Positions 4,344 to 18,082 of a DNA stretch of 24,000 bases are shown here, one piece after another (positions within the stretch are counted from its first letter, which is position 1; each line of letters starts with the position of its first letter). Source of the stretch: Metabacillus kandeliae. GTDB taxonomy: Bacteria; Bacillota; Bacilli; Bacillales; Bacillaceae. Position numbers and translations under genes: made by a program. The stretch lies in the NCBI RefSeq assembly GCF_021166585.1, contig NZ_JAJOZE010000001.1:56062-80061 (forward strand), in the 5' to 3' direction. Below the pieces are notes generated by a model. That model made no database searches. It had not been told where the DNA came from and saw only the letters and a program-made list of their open reading frames with translations.

Positions 4344-5982
4344 CCGTCCGCTGCTTCTCCTGCTGCCGGCAGCATTGCTGACGCTGATCTTTGCCGGAGC
4401 AGGGCTGTTCAGCTCTTTCAGAGAAAGCCTGTATTCTGACGGCAGCTACGGAATGTCTGCTTATCAAAAAATAGCCGCTGAAAAAGCTTATTGGGCAAGC
4501 CTGTTCTTCAGCTTCAGGATGGCTTTCTTCTCCTCCTTGGCGGCCATATTAGGAGGGCTTGTGATCACAAGAGCCATCTTCCCATTTTTAAAAAAGCCTG
4601 AGCGGAGGCTGTTTATTTGGCTGCCGCTTGTGTTTCCGCATTTTGTATGGGGGTATATGCTGCTGCTGCTTTTTGGAGAGAGCGGTTTCTTTTCAAGCCT
4701 GCTTCATCAGCTTGGCCTGATTTCAAGCCGGGAAGAATTTCCGGCCCTGATTAGAGACGAATATGGCATAGGGATTTTTCTGACCTATGTGTCAAAGGAA
4801 ATCCCATTTGTTATTCTAATGCTTTTGCCGGTCTATTTGTCGCTCGGCTCAAGGCAAAGGGAGCTTGTTACCGTAATGGGCGGGAGCCGTTATGATGCCT
4901 TTAAATCGGTCGAGTGGCCTGCCGTATATCCAGTTCTTGCGGAAACCTTTTTTATTCTTTTTGCCTTTATTCTAACAGCGTACGAGGTTCCAGCTCTTCT
5001 TGGCGCCCCTTACCCGAAATTTATTTCGGTGCTCGCCTACGAATGGTTCAATGACGGTGATTGGGCAAAGCGTCCAGAAGCTTATGCAGCACTGATCAGC
5101 CTTTCCATTCTGCTGCTGCTGCTTGTTTTTCTGTTTTACCGGACCGCGAAAAAACGCCCTTTTCTAAAAGGGCTCGCAAGCGGAGGGGAAAGTTATTTCA
5201 GGAAGGGATCAAAGCTCGTTTTCGGGCTGGTGCTTGCCGGATCTTTGCTGCCGGCTGTTTACCTTCTGCTATACAGTGTTCTTCCTTTGAAATGGGAAAG
5301 CTTTATTACTGGGGATCTTGATTTACATGGCTTTAGTCTCCTGTTCGGAGATCCGCTTATAGTAAAGGCGATTCTTTCTTCAGCGGGTATTGCGGCGGCA
5401 GTGATTGCCATCAATCTGCTTATTGGGATTCCTGCTGCAAAGTATTTGGCTCAGGAAACATATAAGCATAAAGCCGTATTTGAAGCCATCCTGCTGTCTC
5501 CGCTCCTGCTGCCCGCCATTATGCTTGCAATGGGGCTGCAGATTTTATTTATTAAAACTGGACTGGCAAACAATTTTTACGGAGTCATCATTATTCAGCT
5601 CCTTCCTACATTGCCTTATACCGTTAAAATTTTTTTGACAGGATTCGTTCAAACAGGGAAGCAGCTTGAAAGCCAGGCGAAAGTTCTCGGCGCTTCAAAT
5701 TGGCAGGCTTTTAAAACAGTGTATTTGCCGCTTCTTCTTCCGAGCTTTCGCGGAGCTGTTTTTTTAATCAGCGTTATATCGCTTGGTCAGTATTTGCTGA
5801 CTGCCATAATAGGAGGAGGAAATGTTGTCACGCTGGCAATGGTCTATTTTCCATACTTTCAGCAGGCTGATGACCGTTTGCTGGCAAGCTTCTCTATTGT
5901 TTTTGCCATTTTGCCGCTCCTATTGTGGTGGATTTTTGAATGTTTGCTAGCAGCTTTTTTACCTTATCGCAAGCGCAGGTGA
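4324..5982 (+). CDS. ABC transporter permease, double-length (two fused transmembrane domains), YnjC-like
   Basis: 552-aa strongly hydrophobic ORF with about 12 predicted helices in two repeated halves. RBS GAAGGAG at 4307-4313. The start overlaps the SBP gene by 20 nt. Confidence 0.85.
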   Translation: MKLFKSNRPLLLLLPAALLTLIFAGAGLFSSFRESLYSDGSYGMSAYQKIAAEKAYWASLFFSFRMAFFSSLAAILGGLVITRAIFPFLKKPERRLFIWLPLVFPHFVWGYMLLLLFGESGFFSSLLHQLGLISSREEFPALIRDEYGIGIFLTYVSKEIPFVILMLLPVYLSLGSRQRELVTVMGGSRYDAFKSVEWPAVYPVLAETFFILFAFILTAYEVPALLGAPYPKFISVLAYEWFNDGDWAKRPEAYAALISLSILLLLLVFLFYRTAKKRPFLKGLASGGESYFRKGSKLVFGLVLAGSLLPAVYLLLYSVLPLKWESFITGDLDLHGFSLLFGDPLIVKAILSSAGIAAAVIAINLLIGIPAAKYLAQETYKHKAVFEAILLSPLLLPAIMLAMGLQILFIKTGLANNFYGVIIIQLLPTLPYTVKIFLTGFVQTGKQLESQAKVLGASNWQAFKTVYLPLLLPSFRGAVFLISVISLGQYLLTAIIGGGNVVTLAMVYFPYFQQADDRLLASFSIVFAILPLLLWWIFECLLAAFLPYRKRR

Positions 5983-5987
5983 TAAAA

Positions 5988-6929
5988 ATGAGTTATTTAT
6001 TATTTAAAGGGACCAAGTTATACGGAAGCAGAACCATTTTTAAAGATTTATCTTTTTCAATGGAAAAAGGAAGGATGCTGTCACTAGTGGGTCCGTCCGG
6101 CACGGGGAAAACAACTCTCCTGCGCTGTATAGCCGGCATAGAAGGGCTTGATGAAGGAGAGCTTGTCATCAGCGGGAGCCATTTAGAGCATGTGCCAAGC
6201 CATAAAAGAGGCATTTCAATGATGTTTCAGGATGCGCTTCTGTTTCCGCATATGACCGTTTATGAAAATGCAGAATACGGGCTGAAGCTTGCAAAAGTGA
6301 ACAAAAAAGAACGGCAGGAAAGAGTGCACCAATTTTTAGCCAAAACGGAAATTGAGCATTTAAAGGATCTCTATCCAGATCAGCTGTCAGGAGGAGAACA
6401 GCAGCGGGTCTCACTGGCAAGAGCTCTTATTGTCAGGCCGAAGCTGCTGCTTCTCGATGAGCCGTTTGCAAGCCTCGATCCCATTCTCAGAGGCAAGCTC
6501 CGCATTTGGGTAAAAGAGCTGCTGAAGGAGGAAGGAATTACAGCTATGCTTGTCACACATGATATCGAGGAAGCGATGGTCATGGGTGACGAGGTGGCAT
6601 TGTTTGCAGAAACACGGTTTCTGCAAAAAGGGAAGCCTGCTGATTTATATTACCGTCCCGAAAATGCAGCCGCAGCCGCATTTTGCAGTGAAGGAATATA
6701 TGAAGATGACACCTTTTATCATGCTGAACAGTTAATAATAGCCGGCACAAGAGAGGAAAAAGGCTGGAAGGGAATTATTAAAGGACAGGTTTTTAAATAT
6801 GGATTGACGTTTTACATTGTCGAACTGGAGAATAAGCAATCCCTTACTATTTTTTCAAAGGAAGTTTTCTCTCCTGGTGATGCTGTTTCTGTTGTTTATG
6901 ATGGAGGAAGTGCGGTTAAAAGAGGATGA
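5988..6929 (+). CDS. ABC transporter ATP-binding protein
   Basis: Walker A GPSGTGKTT, Q-loop MMFQD, signature LSGGEQQR, Walker B LLLLDEP, H-loop VTHD. I place the start at ATG 5988 (MSYLLFKG), 5 nt after the permease stop. The ORF-track start at 5940 lies inside the permease gene. Confidence 0.9.
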   Translation: MSYLLFKGTKLYGSRTIFKDLSFSMEKGRMLSLVGPSGTGKTTLLRCIAGIEGLDEGELVISGSHLEHVPSHKRGISMMFQDALLFPHMTVYENAEYGLKLAKVNKKERQERVHQFLAKTEIEHLKDLYPDQLSGGEQQRVSLARALIVRPKLLLLDEPFASLDPILRGKLRIWVKELLKEEGITAMLVTHDIEEAMVMGDEVALFAETRFLQKGKPADLYYRPENAAAAAFCSEGIYEDDTFYHAEQLIIAGTREEKGWKGIIKGQVFKYGLTFYIVELENKQSLTIFSKEVFSPGDAVSVVYDGGSAVKRG

Positions 6930-12272: not shown

Positions 12273-13070
12273 GTGTGGAAATGGAAGGCAGAAAATCCAA
12301 AAGGCGTAGTTGTGGCGGTGCATGGTGCAGCTGAGCACCACCGCAGATACAGATGGCTGATTGAGATGTGGAGATGTTCGGGCTATCATATCATTATGGG
12401 CGACCTGCCTGGCCAGGGCACGACAACAAGACAGCGGGGCCATATTGATTCCTTTGATGAATACATCAAAGAAGTGAACGGGTGGATTGAAGAAGCCGGG
12501 CGGTACGAGCTTCCAGTTTTTCTTCTGGGCCACAGCATGGGCGGTCTGATTGTGATCAGGTCACTGCAGGAAAAGCATCATAATTTGTCAGGTGTTATTC
12601 TTTCTTCACCTTGCCTTGGCATTGTCCATAAACCGAATCCTGCTTTAGATATACTGTCAAGAGGGCTGAACGTGCTTGCTCCTTCTTTAAGGCTTGACTC
12701 AGGTCTTTCCATTGATATTGCAACGAGAAACAAGGCCATCCGCGATGAAGACGAAAATGATTCTCTCTATGTTCGCAAAGTGTCTGTTAGATGGTACCGG
12801 GAACTAATCAAAGCAATGGAAGAAGCACATGCTAAAATAAATGATTTCCCTGACCTTCCTGTGCTCCTCATGCAGGGCGGAGATGATAAAATAGTGGATA
12901 AATCAGCAGTAAGGACCTGGTTCAATAAACTTGGGGTGCTCGAGAAATCGTATAAGGAATGGAAAGGGTTTTATCACGAAATCTTCAATGAGCCAGACAG
13001 AGAACAAGTATTCAAGATGGCAAAGCATTTTGCCGATGGGCATTTGCCAGAAAGCGAATGGAGTGAATAA
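12273..13070 (+). CDS. ytpA: Alpha/beta-hydrolase, lysophospholipase/monoacylglycerol-lipase family
   Basis: HG oxyanion motif VVAVHGAAEH, nucleophile elbow GHSMGG, late acid/His (GGDDKIV, YHEIFNE). Synteny with ytoA and ytpB. GTG 12273 sits 8 nt after GGAG (12261-12264) and matches the B. subtilis N-terminus MWTWK. The alternative starts at 12264/12267 are too close to the SD. Confidence 0.85.
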   Translation: MWKWKAENPKGVVVAVHGAAEHHRRYRWLIEMWRCSGYHIIMGDLPGQGTTTRQRGHIDSFDEYIKEVNGWIEEAGRYELPVFLLGHSMGGLIVIRSLQEKHHNLSGVILSSPCLGIVHKPNPALDILSRGLNVLAPSLRLDSGLSIDIATRNKAIRDEDENDSLYVRKVSVRWYRELIKAMEEAHAKINDFPDLPVLLMQGGDDKIVDKSAVRTWFNKLGVLEKSYKEWKGFYHEIFNEPDREQVFKMAKHFADGHLPESEWSE

Positions 13071-13074
13071 CGTT

Positions 13075-14154
13075 ATGTCAGTACCGGGCCATCCGATAGG
13101 ATTAATGGCAAAGGTGTACAGGGAGGTTTTTCCTGTAGTACACGAATTTCTTGGGAAATGGCGGGAAAAAGCGGAACAGATTCCTGATCCTGAGCTTCGA
13201 AGCCAGGCGGTCGCAAGCATTGATTCCAAAAGCTTTCATTGTGAAGGGGGAAGCATTCTCGCCATTCTGGCCGGAAGCCGCATGAGGGACACAATTGAAT
13301 TCATTGTTGCTTACCAAACCATCAGCGATTATTTGGACAACCTTTGCGACAGAAGCACAAGCCTTGATCCGGAAGATTTCGCAATGCTTCACAAGTCGAT
13401 GCCTGATGCCCTTACCTGCGGAGCTGAACTGCGCAATTACTATCAGTGCCGTAAAGAGCAAAATGACGGCGGCTATTTAAATGAACTTGTCACTGTTTGC
13501 CAAAGAAAGCTCGGAATGCTTGAAAATTATGAAATCATAAAACCCCATTTGCTTGAACTAGCCGGCTATTACTGCGATCTTCAAGTTCATAAGCATGTGA
13601 TGTTTGAAGAACGGGTTCCAAGGCTTGAAAACTGGTTTGACGGCCACAGGCCTGCCTTGCCTGACATGGAGTGGTACGAATTTTCAGCATGTGCCGGATC
13701 AACTCTGGGTATTTTCTGCCTTGTCTCTTATGCCTTCCAAGCATCCATGACAGAGCACATTGCAGGACAGATCAGATCAAGCTACTTTCCATACATACAA
13801 GGACTTCATATCCTCCTTGATTACTTAATTGACCAGGAAGAGGACTTGATTGAAGGCGATTTGAATTTTTGCAGCTATTATCCTTCAAGAGAAGAAATGA
13901 TCAGCAGAATGCAGCACTTTATTCAGCAGGCTGATAAAAATCTCGCGGGCATCCCTCATGAGAATTTTCACAAGCTGATCAACAGAGGTCTTCTCGGTGT
14001 CTACCTCTCAGACAGTAAAATAGCCGGACAGAGAGATTTAAATAAAATCGCAAGAAAACTCCTCCTGCAGGGAGGCTCGACATCGCTCTTTTTCTATTTG
14101 AACGGCAGGGCGTACAGGACCTTTCAAAAGTTTTCTTCTAAAAAAAGTTCTTAA
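13075..14154 (+). CDS. ytpB: Tetraprenyl-beta-curcumene synthase (YtpB/DUF2600 family terpene synthase)
   Basis: 359-aa product starting MSVPGHPIGLMAKVYREVFP. Acidic motifs DYLDNLCD and DYLIDQEED. It lies immediately downstream (4 nt) of ytpA, as in B. subtilis. The ORF-track start at 12931 is an in-frame extension through the ytpA 3' end. Confidence 0.85.
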   Translation: MSVPGHPIGLMAKVYREVFPVVHEFLGKWREKAEQIPDPELRSQAVASIDSKSFHCEGGSILAILAGSRMRDTIEFIVAYQTISDYLDNLCDRSTSLDPEDFAMLHKSMPDALTCGAELRNYYQCRKEQNDGGYLNELVTVCQRKLGMLENYEIIKPHLLELAGYYCDLQVHKHVMFEERVPRLENWFDGHRPALPDMEWYEFSACAGSTLGIFCLVSYAFQASMTEHIAGQIRSSYFPYIQGLHILLDYLIDQEEDLIEGDLNFCSYYPSREEMISRMQHFIQQADKNLAGIPHENFHKLINRGLLGVYLSDSKIAGQRDLNKIARKLLLQGGSTSLFFYLNGRAYRTFQKFSSKKSS

Positions 14155-14193
14155 AAAACTGCTCCCGCTCTAATAAGGCGGGGCAGTTTTTTT
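14153..14193. terminator. Intrinsic terminator after ytpB (A-run/stem/T-run)
   Basis: CTGC(T)CCCGC-9 nt loop-GCGGGGCAG followed by T7 and preceded by A6. Confidence 0.8.
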
Positions 14194-14200
14194 GTCCAGG

Positions 14201-14227
14201 AAAAAAGCCCGCGAGAACGGGCTTTTT
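14201..14227. terminator. Second, bidirectional intrinsic terminator. It is probably the stop for the minus-strand MgtC-like transcript.
   Basis: A6-GCCCG-CGAGAA-CGGGC-T5, symmetric on both strands. Confidence 0.7.
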
Positions 14228-14245
14228 CATACTGATTGTAAGAAG

Positions 14246-14520
14246 GGGGCGGCTTGCGCTTTTCTTTGTCCAGCTCCAGCCGCTAGCCCCTCGAGGTCAT
14301 AAGCCGCTCATCCAGGGAAAGGAAAGGTCGCCTTTCCCCGGCTGATCGTCTTATGCTTGTCGGGGCTGAACGAGCGGCTTGCGCTTTTCTGCATTGTCCA
14401 GCTCCAGCCGCTAGCCCGATCTGAGTCGCTTCGAAAAATCCCAAAAAGTCAAAGACCAGACTTTTCGGGATTTTCCTCCAGCGCTTGTCGAGGCTGAACG
14501 AGCGGCTTGCGCTTTTCTGC
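14246..14520. repeat. 128-bp-periodic array: a ~63-bp conserved module (partial, full, partial) alternating with two 65-bp variable long hairpins
   Basis: The conserved module GCTTGTCGrGGCTGAACGAGCGGCTTGCGCTTTTCTGCATTGTCCAGCTCCAGCCGCTAGCCC occurs at 14355-14417 (full). Its 3' part is at 14249-14289 (lacking GCA) and its 5' part at 14483-14520. The variable hairpins are at 14290-14354 and 14418-14482. Confidence 0.85.
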
Positions 14521-15218
14521 TACCCAACAGATTCTATTTCAACTGATTGTACGCCCTCCAGCTTTTTGAGCAGCAGGTAGACGTCAGAGGTTTGAATTCT
14601 TTCTGCGGTAAGCAGGAGGAGTTCTACTTTCTGCACGCTATCTTCCTTTTGGTCCCTGATGCGGATGTATTTGATGCGGAGATGATTATTTTTAACGGCA
14701 TCCAGGACGTTTTGGACCTTTGTGTTTTCTGTCAGCTGCAATTTAGTTTTCATTTCTTTTTGGTTAAGCTTCTTTGGTCCGAAACGCTTGATCAGCGGTG
14801 CAATCAGGTCAATGGATACAATGATTAGAATCAGGGCTGCAAGGGATTCAGCGTAGAAACCTGCGCCAATAGAAATGCCGAGTGCCGCAGCACCCCATAC
14901 AATGGCAGCTGTTGTCAGTCCGCTGATGACGTCATTGCTTCTTCTTAAAATCGCACCGGCCCCTAAAAATCCGACCCCTGAAACGATTTGAGCAGCCAGG
15001 CGGAGCGGGTCCATCGGCCGTGAATATTTTTCAGATAAAGCATAGGATGCTTCTATAGAAACGACAGTTAAAAGGCAGGCTGTGACTGAGATAATGATGG
15101 TTGTTTTAATACCGAGCGGTTTTTTCTTTATCTCGCGTTCCATCCCGATAATAATTCCGACAATCAAGGATAAGAATAATTTAATAAGTGCTTGCTGATG
15201 ATCCATAAATATTTCCAT
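14520..15218 (-). CDS. MgtC/SapB-family membrane protein with C-terminal ACT-like domain
   Basis: 232-aa product starting MEIFMDHQQALIKLFLSLIVG with GGAGGTG 5 nt upstream. MgtC core GMEREIKKKPLGIKTT and LAAQIVSGVGFLGAGAI. The upstream 49 codons of the ORF-track ORF run through a terminator and the ytqB 3' end. Confidence 0.85.
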   Translation of the reverse strand: MEIFMDHQQALIKLFLSLIVGIIIGMEREIKKKPLGIKTTIIISVTACLLTVVSIEASYALSEKYSRPMDPLRLAAQIVSGVGFLGAGAILRRSNDVISGLTTAAIVWGAAALGISIGAGFYAESLAALILIIVSIDLIAPLIKRFGPKKLNQKEMKTKLQLTENTKVQNVLDAVKNNHLRIKYIRIRDQKEDSVQKVELLLLTAERIQTSDVYLLLKKLEGVQSVEIESVG

Positions 15219-17948: not shown

Positions 17949-17973
17949 AGTGTACTACACTAATTAATACACT
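17949..17973 (+). promoter_or_regulatory. Putative YtrA operator: AGTGTA-13 bp-TACACT inverted repeat
   Basis: AGTGTA at 17949-17954 and TACACT at 17968-17973. This matches the inverted repeat I recall being reported for B. subtilis YtrA targets. It overlaps the expected transcription start. Confidence 0.6.
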
Positions 17974-18008
17974 AATTAATACACTAATTAATACACTAAT
18001 TAATACAC
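17956..18008. repeat. Perfect 12-bp tandem repeat (TACACTAATTAA) x4 plus a partial fifth unit
   Basis: Units at 17956, 17968, 17980 and 17992, then TACAC at 18004-18008. I counted these directly. Confidence 0.95.
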
Positions 18009-18082
18009 ACAGAAATAGGAAGCACCAGAACCGTCCCCATGCTTCCTACAATTCAACCCATATGGAGAAAGAAGGGAGATCG

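Follow-up and report, generated by a model that had tools for sequence, protein, structure and literature searches.

Bacillaceae-1 (RF01690; Weinberg et al., 2010) is a published motif of ~67 nt, with two hairpins that carry RUCCU terminal loops, and is listed among the most abundant small RNA (sRNA) families. In the supplement of the original description it was judged to be likely a trans-acting RNA found in many gene contexts, with loops suggestive of a dimeric protein partner; its reverse complement resembles CsrA sites, a role as a CsrA sponge has been proposed, and its strand is uncertain (PMC4333381). Other described systems of relevance are the interspersed palindromes. The termini of repetitive extragenic palindromes (REPs) often supply stop codons (PMC3733652), and REPs of E. 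coli that lie within 15 nt of a stop codon stall ribosomes, according to work cited in PMC12306157. Of the Bacillus cereus repeats, bcr1 is 155 bp long and forms two distinct stem-loops (PMC3184786), for bcr2 and bcr3 there are many 'partial' copies (PMC6199540), and bcr3 lies near housekeeping genes and is associated with a longer mRNA half-life (PMC3446304). Here, a hairpin-forming repeat is described from a stretch of 24 000 nt of the Metabacillus kandeliae genome (contig NZ_JAJOZE010000001.1, positions 56 062 to 80 061 of the forward strand; hereafter the window), where it forms an array directly downstream of a gene of the MgtC/SapB family (sapB).

The family to which this array belongs is genuine, has a strong structure and is joined physically to the orphan motif Bacillaceae-1. 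As Bacillaceae-1 shares its frame, strand and flanks with the units in the window, the latter are the Bacillaceae-1-less form of one modular repeat. The feature in the window is probably composed of units of a widespread, non-coding, modular structured repeat, similar to REPs and their bacterial interspersed mosaic elements (BIMEs), to ERIC sequences and to MITEs (miniature transposable elements with inverted repeats), the longer versions of which hold Bacillaceae-1. A string search of the literature for the core sequence, and general searches on Bacillaceae repeats or REP-associated tyrosine transposases (RAYTs), found no description of it.

Results

The array and its repeat unit

R sense is used throughout for the minus strand of the window, and the anatomy of the units is given in that sense. 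The array, located at window positions 14245–14517, comprised two complete hairpin units and a truncated unit of 20 nt, and each of the full units is a repeat of ~125 bases that forms a long imperfect hairpin (Table 1). A first-pass annotation of the window had reported a periodicity of 128 bp and copies of a conserved module, and both were recovered as direct repeats of 38 nt (14355–14392 and 14483–14520, 97% identity) and 24 nt (14266–14289 and 14394–14417, 100% identity) with a spacing of 128. The 17-mer GCGGCTTGCGCTTTTCT was present in three copies, at spacings of 125 and 128; 0.15 copies were expected by chance and three copies were reached in 0 of 100 shuffles. Folding of the two 65-nt segments between the repeats gave hairpins of ~24–25 bp with 8-nt loops, as annotated, and the conserved flanks (AGCCGCT..AGCCCC with GGGGCT..AGCGGCT) lengthened each hairpin. 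The claim that the two segments fold identically was too strong, as the inner stem of unit 2 has three 1x1 mismatches and that of unit 1 has another pattern. The array region as a whole had a folding energy of −146.8 kcal/mol on the minus strand (z −5.5 vs shuffles) and −137.2 kcal/mol on the plus strand (z −5.0 vs shuffles).

Each unit of the family is a self-contained imperfect hairpin of ~100 nt, in which the helices P1 and P2 are split by a conserved 6-nt bulge and enclose an exchangeable inner cassette. Read in R sense, the unit runs from a 5′ tail, (G)AAAAGCG(C)A, through the 5′ half of P1 (7 nt, variable), the conserved bulge YUGNUC, AG with the 5′ half of P2 (4 nt, variable) and a conserved internal loop (GACAAGC / GACCUCGA) to the inner hairpin, and returns through the 3′ halves of P2 and P1, which lie around a conserved CUAG, to the 3′ tail GGAGCUGGA(C/U). 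The frame of the units on the minus strand of the window is GAAAAGCGCA ... GGAGCUGGAC, the conserved tails being single-stranded. Units are mostly 116–122 nt in length with an array period of 120–128 nt, and the linkers between them differ in sequence and length across the family.

For the analysis of covariation 76 units, less than 90% identical to one another, were aligned, and the same alignment was the basis of the covariance model R1. Standard pairs were formed in 90.3% of cells, compared with 68.5% in shuffled alignments, the covariation score was 0.536 (0.163 shuffled, and no more than 0.172 with the partners slid) and compensatory double changes were found at 23 of the 29 pairs. The suggestion that structure is kept while sequence changes, that is covariation, was thus upheld by the family as a whole. 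The invariance of the tails is partly by construction, because the units were chosen by those motifs.

Between adjacent units that are not alike, P1 3′ halves agreed with the 5′ half of their own unit in 44 cases and with that of the next unit in 5. P1 pairing inside the annotated module was ruled out by this comparison; the pairing spans each hairpin, and an array is therefore a string of self-contained hairpins rather than of repeats and spacers. It follows that module plus spacer is not the natural unit, the units being those at 14396–14517 and 14268–14389. Both carry the same unusual P1 variant (AGCCGCU/AGCGGCU), which suggests either that the frame is constant and its interiors are exchangeable or that the frame has been homogenised within the array. 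A candidate mini-terminator in the plus-strand tail (GCG-CUUG-CGC with a U-tract) was ruled out on inspection of the P1 variants, the AGCGGCT of the window being unable to make the stem.

Distribution of the family

A blastn search of plasmid records identified related copies in Bacillus and Cytobacillus replicons. Loci of the family were then collected from contigs of one genome per species with a degenerate pattern built on the plasmid copies, by which the scan is biased, and family-wide counts rest on the at least 105 loci listed, with genes at those loci called crudely as long open reading frames (ORFs). The pattern scan yielded more than 105 loci and at least 189 cores in at least 21 genera of Bacillaceae and Planococcaceae: Bacillus, Rossellomorea, Cytobacillus, Mesobacillus, Neobacillus, Peribacillus, Metabacillus, Falsibacillus, Ectobacillus, Heyndrickxia, Halobacillus, Pontibacillus, Lentibacillus, Aquibacillus, Shouchella, Alkalihalobacillus, Nanhaiella, Lysinibacillus, Psychrobacillus, Planococcus and Planomicrobium. 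The element is therefore not unique to its locus; uniqueness was the outcome that the first-pass annotation had named as counting against its reading. A single Bacillus record of 5.5 Mb carried the repeat in at least 21 places and a B. thuringiensis megaplasmid in 11, and the commonest form in the family was the single unit. No copy of the family pattern was found in phage and viral collections; the bare 17-mer had 11 matches in IMG/VR and the longer family pattern had none in the same collection.

Cassette subtypes and the link to Bacillaceae-1

Subtypes of the inner hairpin recur across genera, namely CAUAAG...CUUAUG, GCGCUGGAGG...CGAAGCGAC, CAAAU...AUUUG and a B. cereus-type CUAAGG..., and a further cassette class consists of longer inserts that are not simple hairpins. 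The two hairpins of the window do not represent drifted versions of one; they belong to two different, widely distributed subtypes (Table 1). Within one subtype the central 7–9 bp of the stem vary between copies and are fully compensated. Identical stem variants were shared by separate loci and species, so that the apparent hypervariability represents in large part subfamily structure and turnover, and not drift in place. At L026, L047, L052, L054, L087, L091 and L095 an interior of ~105 nt (…GAGATAAAGGAAACAC…GTTGACTTATCGTA…) replaced the simple hairpin in the same frame, as in the R-sense unit of L047 at about 5870–6015, and the interiors of L026, L047 and L054 had no Rfam match at gathering score.

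Rfam Bacillaceae-1 matched sequences that alternate with the units at other loci. RF01690 copies were located inside units of ~190 nt, on the same strand, in L015:5576–6015, L045:3358–3424, L075:6191–6571, L048:619–928 and others. Model R2, which was built from Rfam-confirmed Bacillaceae-1 copies (the RF01690 gathering score is 35 bits), detected 27 copies in 100 sources and none in the window. Comparison of the whole window with Rfam at gathering score gave 0 matches, and at E ≤ 10 the region 14100–14600 gave no RF01690, only chance matches to miRNA-like hairpins and terminators. The covariance model and Rfam check that had been proposed for the array therefore produced a family model with strong covariation, but no Rfam family that matches the window.

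Bacillaceae-1-like copies near an element were on the R-sense strand in 24 of 25 cases and typically started 16–17 nt past the GAAAAGCG.A tail, where the conserved bulge would be. The composite units of ~190 nt fold as a junction closed by P1, with two Bacillaceae-1 hairpins followed by a CAUAAG-type hairpin, which is the subtype of unit 2 in the window. In the flanked alignment of Weinberg et al. (2010) GGAGCUGGA occurred 28 times and AAAAGCGCAAGC 9 times on the strand of the motif. Bacillaceae-1 and the hairpin family thus occur in the same taxa, on the same strand and in the same physical repeat, with the GAAAAGCGCA ... GGAGCUGGAC frame in common; in the composite units the motif is a module that follows the 5′ half of P1 and precedes the CAUAAG-type hairpin, and the frame is not in the Rfam definition. 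Both are found in many gene contexts and in high abundance. The window units differ in having no Bacillaceae-1 module, and the frame, the long cassettes, the tandem arrays and their polarity fall outside the published description of Bacillaceae-1.

Strand asymmetry and polarity of the arrays

The R-sense strand folded better in 121 of 138 unique units, with a mean difference of −4.9 kcal/mol, and in these 138 units there were 428 G.U pairs in R sense vs 177 on the other strand (p = 2e-19). This asymmetry comes mostly from a few conserved G.U positions. The difference was −4.75 kcal/mol in units embedded after a stop codon and −4.71 kcal/mol in all others; being equal inside and outside transcripts, it is a property of the element family, and local selection on host transcripts was ruled out as the cause of the G.U asymmetry.

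Both orientations relative to the flanking ORFs occur. The R-sense 5′ end of an array is exact and was found 0–6 nt past the stop codon in 31 of the 37 arrays that follow a co-directional ORF of 100 codons or more, these stop codons belonging to a wide variety of genes. At the R-sense 3′ end a truncated next unit with a variable cut point was present in 94 of 113 arrays. Using simple in-house criteria to call terminators, a host terminator was identified within 160 nt of 43 of 89 arrays on the 3′ side vs 16 of 89 on the 5′ side. Where the array was downstream of a gene in R sense, a terminator intervened between stop codon and array in 3 of 48 cases and 29 arrays began 10 nt or less past the stop; where it was downstream in plus sense, a terminator intervened in 35 of 50 and no array abutted the stop codon. 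It follows that a repeat within a transcription unit is transcribed in R sense.

At L108 (R-sense 3′ flank) and L065 the terminal truncated unit ran seamlessly into a host terminator starting AAAAGCGCA (AAAAGCGCATGCAT-AATTAA-ATGCATGCGCTTTTT). This merging suggests that the 5′ tail of the unit mimics, or recombines with, the A-tract shoulder of terminators. At L074 (minus strand, ~397) a solo 5′ fragment of a unit lay immediately after the 3′ end of an apparent tRNA gene (…GGTTCGAATCC…) and before a terminator. The R-sense strand had negative GC skew in 71 of 100 loci (L015–L119; p = 3e-5), and in 65 of 100 the opposite strand held most of the coding sequence. Gene direction was strongly correlated with GC skew (r = 0.9), so that an effect of the replication strand is inseparable from one of gene direction.

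Turnover at orthologous sites

The trpS locus was compared in four taxa with TrpS identities of 89–93%, and two hot spots were apparent, immediately downstream of the T-box terminator and of the trpS stop codon. The site in the 5′ untranslated region (UTR) held units X and Y with a partial unit, Y and X, X with a partial unit, or a remnant of ~75 nt; the 3′ site held Y and X, Y alone, X with a partial unit, or nothing. In B. cereus-like genomes (L034:5200–7300; L120, L122 and L124) the repeat was present at three sites around trpS, one of which, being between the T-box terminator and the trpS ribosome-binding site, is inside a riboswitch-controlled 5′ UTR. The trpS transcript of B. cereus ATCC 10987, a strain that may carry the repeat at this locus, has a 5′ UTR of 621 nt and a 3′ UTR of 330 nt.

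At a Rossellomorea locus compared in six taxa a flank of 170 nt was 100% conserved, and the adjoining array varied from one to ~5 units with differing central stems. The second unit of L072 matched the first unit of L039, a hint, from this one comparison, of growth by the addition of units at the exact 5′ junction. One array, of the form a-b-a-b-a-partial, represents a block duplication, and its orthologue was b′-c-partial. Comparisons of filled and empty sites, between genomes 69–93% identical at the protein level, showed that unit number and type differ and that some sites are empty.

Search for a partner gene

When the 1128 ORFs of the 105 loci were clustered all against all, no enriched family emerged beyond ABC-transporter paralogues and orthologous housekeeping loci. 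No Y1, RAYT or IS200-type gene was detected in the 0.86 Mb of flanking sequence of these loci with an IS200 TnpA sequence as the query, and the REP/RAYT or IS200/IS605 logic that had been invoked for the array is at present an analogy only. The genes between oppositely oriented units were ordinary, with no RAYT among them.

Neighbourhood of the array in the window

The sapB stop codon, TAG, is at 14522–14520 and the junction reads TAG-CA-GAAAAGCG, so that the array starts 3 nt past the stop and the helix of unit 1 at the 13th nt past the TAG. The array was correctly placed by the first-pass annotation between the MgtC-like stop codon and a bidirectional terminator, and its view of the array as a structured 3′ UTR on the minus strand is in keeping with the present data, as there is no terminator between stop codon and array and one immediately after. 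Judged from the sequence, the array is most likely part of a structured sapB 3′ UTR of ~290 nt that ends at the terminator at 14201–14227. The 12-bp helix of this terminator was present in the folds of both strands. The convergent DUF2600 and sapB genes are separated by back-to-back terminator-like hairpins, of which the one at 14201–14227 is bidirectional and the other is plus-sense only; the latter, at 14163–14192, keeps plus-strand read-through out of the array.

The closest available sapB orthologue (69% identity) had no element, its stop codon being followed by 20 nt and then a terminator, and the sapB orthologue of Metabacillus indicus was also without one. The array in the window is thus lineage-specific. 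Two ORFs, at 14283–14444 (minus strand, 53 codons) and 14357–14497 (plus strand, 46 codons), lie wholly inside the array. Elsewhere in the window a perfect 12-nt tandem repeat, TACACTAATTAA, was found in 4.4 copies in intergenic DNA at 17956–18017, where it overlaps a reading with a 24-nt period.

Table 1. Features of the array and its flanks in window coordinates; the R1 scores of units 1 and 2 are partly circular because both units belonged to the training set of the model.
Feature	Position	Strand	Details
Repeat unit 1 (nearest the stop codon)	14396–14517	−	Model R1 92 bits, E = 3e-25, full length; cassette subtype GCGCUGGAGG...CGAAGCGAC, closest relatives in L102, L093 and L032
Unit 1, 5′ tail	14517–14508	−	GAAAAGCGCA
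Unit 1, P1 5′ half	14507–14501	−	AGCCGCT
Unit 1, inner hairpin (segment 2 of the first-pass annotation)	14418–14482		Arms ~14427–14450 and 14459–14483; 8-nt loop AAAGACCA on the plus strand
Unit 1, 3′ tail	14405–14396	−	GGAGCTGGAC
Linker between units 1 and 2	14390–14395	−	AATGCA on the minus strand
Repeat unit 2	14268–14389	−	Model R1 118 bits, E = 9e-33; cassette subtype CAUAAG...CUUAUG, closest relatives in L065, L069 and L080
Unit 2, inner hairpin (segment 1 of the first-pass annotation)	14290–14354		Arms ~14298–14322 and 14331–14355; loop AAAGGTCG on the plus strand
Truncated third unit	14245–14264	−	GAAAAGCGCAAGCCGCCCCC; 5′ tail, P1 5′ half and CCCC left
sapB (MgtC/SapB family)	14520–15218	−	Pfam PF02308, E = 1.4e-33; homologues named MgtC/SapB
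Bidirectional intrinsic terminator	14201–14227	both	A-tract 14201–14206, stem-loop 14207–14222 (GCCCG/CGGGC), T-tract 14223–14227
DUF2600 (YtpB-family) gene, convergent	12931–14154	+	Pfam PF10776
Terminator of the DUF2600 gene	14163–14192	+	Terminator scan

Discussion

Dispersal over many loci, intergenic positions in both orientations, the absence of a gene association, rapid turnover and the formation of arrays are features of an interspersed structured repeat of the BIME/REP, ERIC or MITE kind. With the REPs and BIMEs of Enterobacteria and Pseudomonas it shares extragenic palindromic units in mosaic arrays, conserved linkers, a copy number that varies between strains and the use of both orientations, and many REPs also lie just after or overlapping stop codons, in 3′ UTRs (PMC3733652; PMC12306157), a feature that parallels the adjacency of the hairpin family to stop codons. 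The units described here are, however, ~120 nt long rather than 20–40 nt and are arranged head-to-tail rather than in alternating orientation. They have no GTAG/CGTC tag, the tetranucleotide at the foot being a CTAG inside helix P1/P2, and they differ further in the exchangeable interior cassette, in polar arrays with a truncated terminal unit and in that no RAYT gene was found.

ERIC, Correia/NEMIS, RUP and the B. cereus repeats bcr1–bcr3 are, like the present units, imperfect palindromes of 100–170 bp that are intergenic, often transcribed and able to form hairpins at the RNA level. The family differs from such MITE-like repeats in that neither a TA or TTTAT target duplication nor terminal inverted repeats of classical type were seen. 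The comparison of bcr2 and bcr3 with the B. cereus-group members of the family was by description. Integron attC sites also resemble the units, with a conserved foot and a variable palindromic centre, a similar total length (57–141 nt), a strand-specific fold with conserved unpaired bases, an orientation bias related to replication and apparent addition at a fixed junction. They differ in that the repeat has no integrase, attI or gene cassettes and occupies hundreds of dispersed sites instead of one platform, and the R and L boxes (RYYYAAC...GTTRRRY) are absent from the family consensus. Group IIC introns insert after intrinsic terminators. Plus-sense arrays downstream of a terminator hairpin and T-tract, co-oriented with most genes, may resemble them in this choice of target; the units have neither intron ribozyme domains nor a reverse transcriptase ORF.

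Several other explanations of the array may be weighed. A functional RNA selected by the host, made as a minus-sense transcript alone or with Bacillaceae-1 and acting either in trans (by binding or sponging a protein) or in cis (on the stability of mRNA 3′ ends or on translation termination), would account for the strong covariation, for tails, bulge and apical loop that are conserved in sequence, and for the fact that the better-folding strand is the transcribed one whenever an array is inside a transcription unit. The base of the helix lies 12–16 nt past stop codons, REPs of E. coli stall ribosomes from 15 nt or less in the work cited by PMC12306157, and for Bacillaceae-1 itself there are the likely trans-acting role with protein-binding loops of the Weinberg (2010) supplement and the CsrA sponge of PMC4333381. 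The long UTRs of the B. cereus trpS transcript (621 nt at the 5′ side and 330 nt at the 3′ side) would also fit such an RNA. This explanation nevertheless appears unlikely, given that both orientations occur, that about two thirds of the arrays are antisense to the local gene direction and behind terminators, and that no gene is consistently associated; close relatives differ at the same site in copy number and in the type and order of units, the fold asymmetry is independent of transcription, and promoter evidence was not found. At a comparable level of doubt stands an element that moves as a hairpin of single-stranded DNA (ssDNA), in the sense of REP/RAYT, IS200/IS605 or integron attC, its folded units being cut and joined at A-tract shoulders by a strand-specific HUH/Y1 transposase or tyrosine recombinase, encoded elsewhere, that would bind to the folded strand and the conserved tails. 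Strand-specific folding, conserved non-Watson–Crick positions and a conserved bulge speak for such an element, as does conservation limited to foot and apex around a variable, attC-like centre; growth is apparently polar at one fixed junction (L072 vs L039), the better-folding strand is on the negative-GC-skew strand in 71 of 100 loci, and REP termini also abut or supply stop codons (PMC3733652). The difficulties are the lack of a Y1 or RAYT gene in the 0.86 Mb of flanks or between inverted units, of a GTAG or CGTC tag, and of an integrase or ORF-bearing cassettes, the length of the units relative to REPs, and the expectation that the active strand of an IS608-type element is on the lagging-strand template, which here is the strand that folds more weakly.

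Far less probable is a non-autonomous retroelement, in which plus-sense unit RNAs, ending in a hairpin and U-tract, would be reverse-transcribed at A-rich sites, with template switching to mix the arrays and premature stops to truncate the terminal unit. It would explain an exact end on one side with a ragged, truncated unit on the other, arrays that mix unit types, and plus-sense arrays after terminators in the manner of group IIC introns, but no reverse transcriptase was found nearby, the better structure is on the opposite, minus-sense strand, the units have no ribozyme or intron features, and decay or scarring by recombination could equally account for the truncated units. A CRISPR-like array (short palindromic repeats that are clustered and regularly interspaced) or a decaying local tandem duplication can be set aside almost entirely. 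The layout, with a 63-nt 'repeat' and 65-nt 'spacers', is superficially that of repeat and spacer; yet the 'spacers' are palindromic and their families are common to many genomes, the halves of the 'repeat' pair with the spacer that they flank and not with each other, single units are commonest, and no cas genes were present in the window or at the 105 loci. Presence at more than 105 other loci shows that the family is not local and, together with P1 pairing across the hairpins and the shared palindromic cassettes, refutes both of these explanations.

The interpretation as an interspersed structured repeat has to be set against several observations. The 24 kb of the window, scanned with R1, contained just one array. 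No transposase, recombinase or reverse transcriptase partner was found in the flanks of the 105 loci, and neither a target-site duplication, nor a classical MITE terminal inverted repeat, nor a flank consistently duplicated between the 5′ and 3′ junctions was found; apart from the hairpin stem there is no 'inverted repeat', and a parent insertion sequence was not found. No case of insertion or excision separating near-identical strains was observed, and mobility is therefore deduced from distribution and turnover alone. The plus sense was co-oriented with local genes or positive GC skew in 65–71 of 100 loci, a bias that a purely passive element does not account for, and conservation of tails, bulge and apical loop across genera, with persistence at orthologous sites, could equally reflect a host function.

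If the array is indeed an interspersed repeat, units may have been inserted between the sapB stop codon and its terminator, having spread through a strand-specific folded intermediate, either ssDNA or RNA of the minus-sense strand. The agent of spread would be some trans-acting enzyme, or copy-choice at A-tract or terminator shoulders, and unequal recombination may later have amplified or reshuffled the units. An ssDNA recombinase or transposase, or copy-choice at terminator-like sequences, would fit the exact and ragged ends, the position at A-tracts and terminators, the fold specific to one strand and the bias in orientation; reverse transcription with template switching would fit them less well. 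Co-transcription with sapB as a 3′ UTR of ~290 nt would place two long hairpins in the transcript from 13 nt past the stop codon, where they may block exonucleases, offer targets to RNases or obstruct terminating ribosomes; for the host, any benefit would presumably be secondary. It may also be speculated, with little confidence, that a single, so far unrecognised class of self-propagating element in Bacillota includes both the Bacillaceae-1 'sRNA' and the hairpin units as its modules. Such an element would be a strand-specific folded unit of ~120–190 nt, as ssDNA or RNA, inserted by an enzyme at the A-tract shoulders of terminators or after stop codons, growing at one junction and decaying at the other, with cassettes swapped in a constant frame.

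The repeat has practical consequences for genome analysis, as its units produce spurious small ORFs, which are likely to be called hypothetical proteins in many Bacillaceae genomes, and are likely to break assemblies and to confuse repeat or CRISPR finders. Repeats are located 0–6 nt past the stop codons of many housekeeping genes and before their terminators. Should they act on termination, ribosome release or mRNA decay, in the manner of E. coli REPs, the expression of many genes in Bacillaceae would be under their influence. Bacillaceae-1, an orphan since 2010 that has been listed as a likely trans-acting sRNA of uncertain strand, is an optional module of a larger, array-forming repeat, and the strand asymmetry, the polarity relative to genes and the turnover place testable constraints on its strand and function. 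Should the self-propagating class exist, it would constitute a new transposition or recombination system, and an abundant orphan Rfam 'sRNA' family would become part of a mobile element. The polar arrays and exact junctions are pointers to a specific mechanism of insertion in Gram-positive bacteria, in which systems of the REP/BIME type are poorly known.

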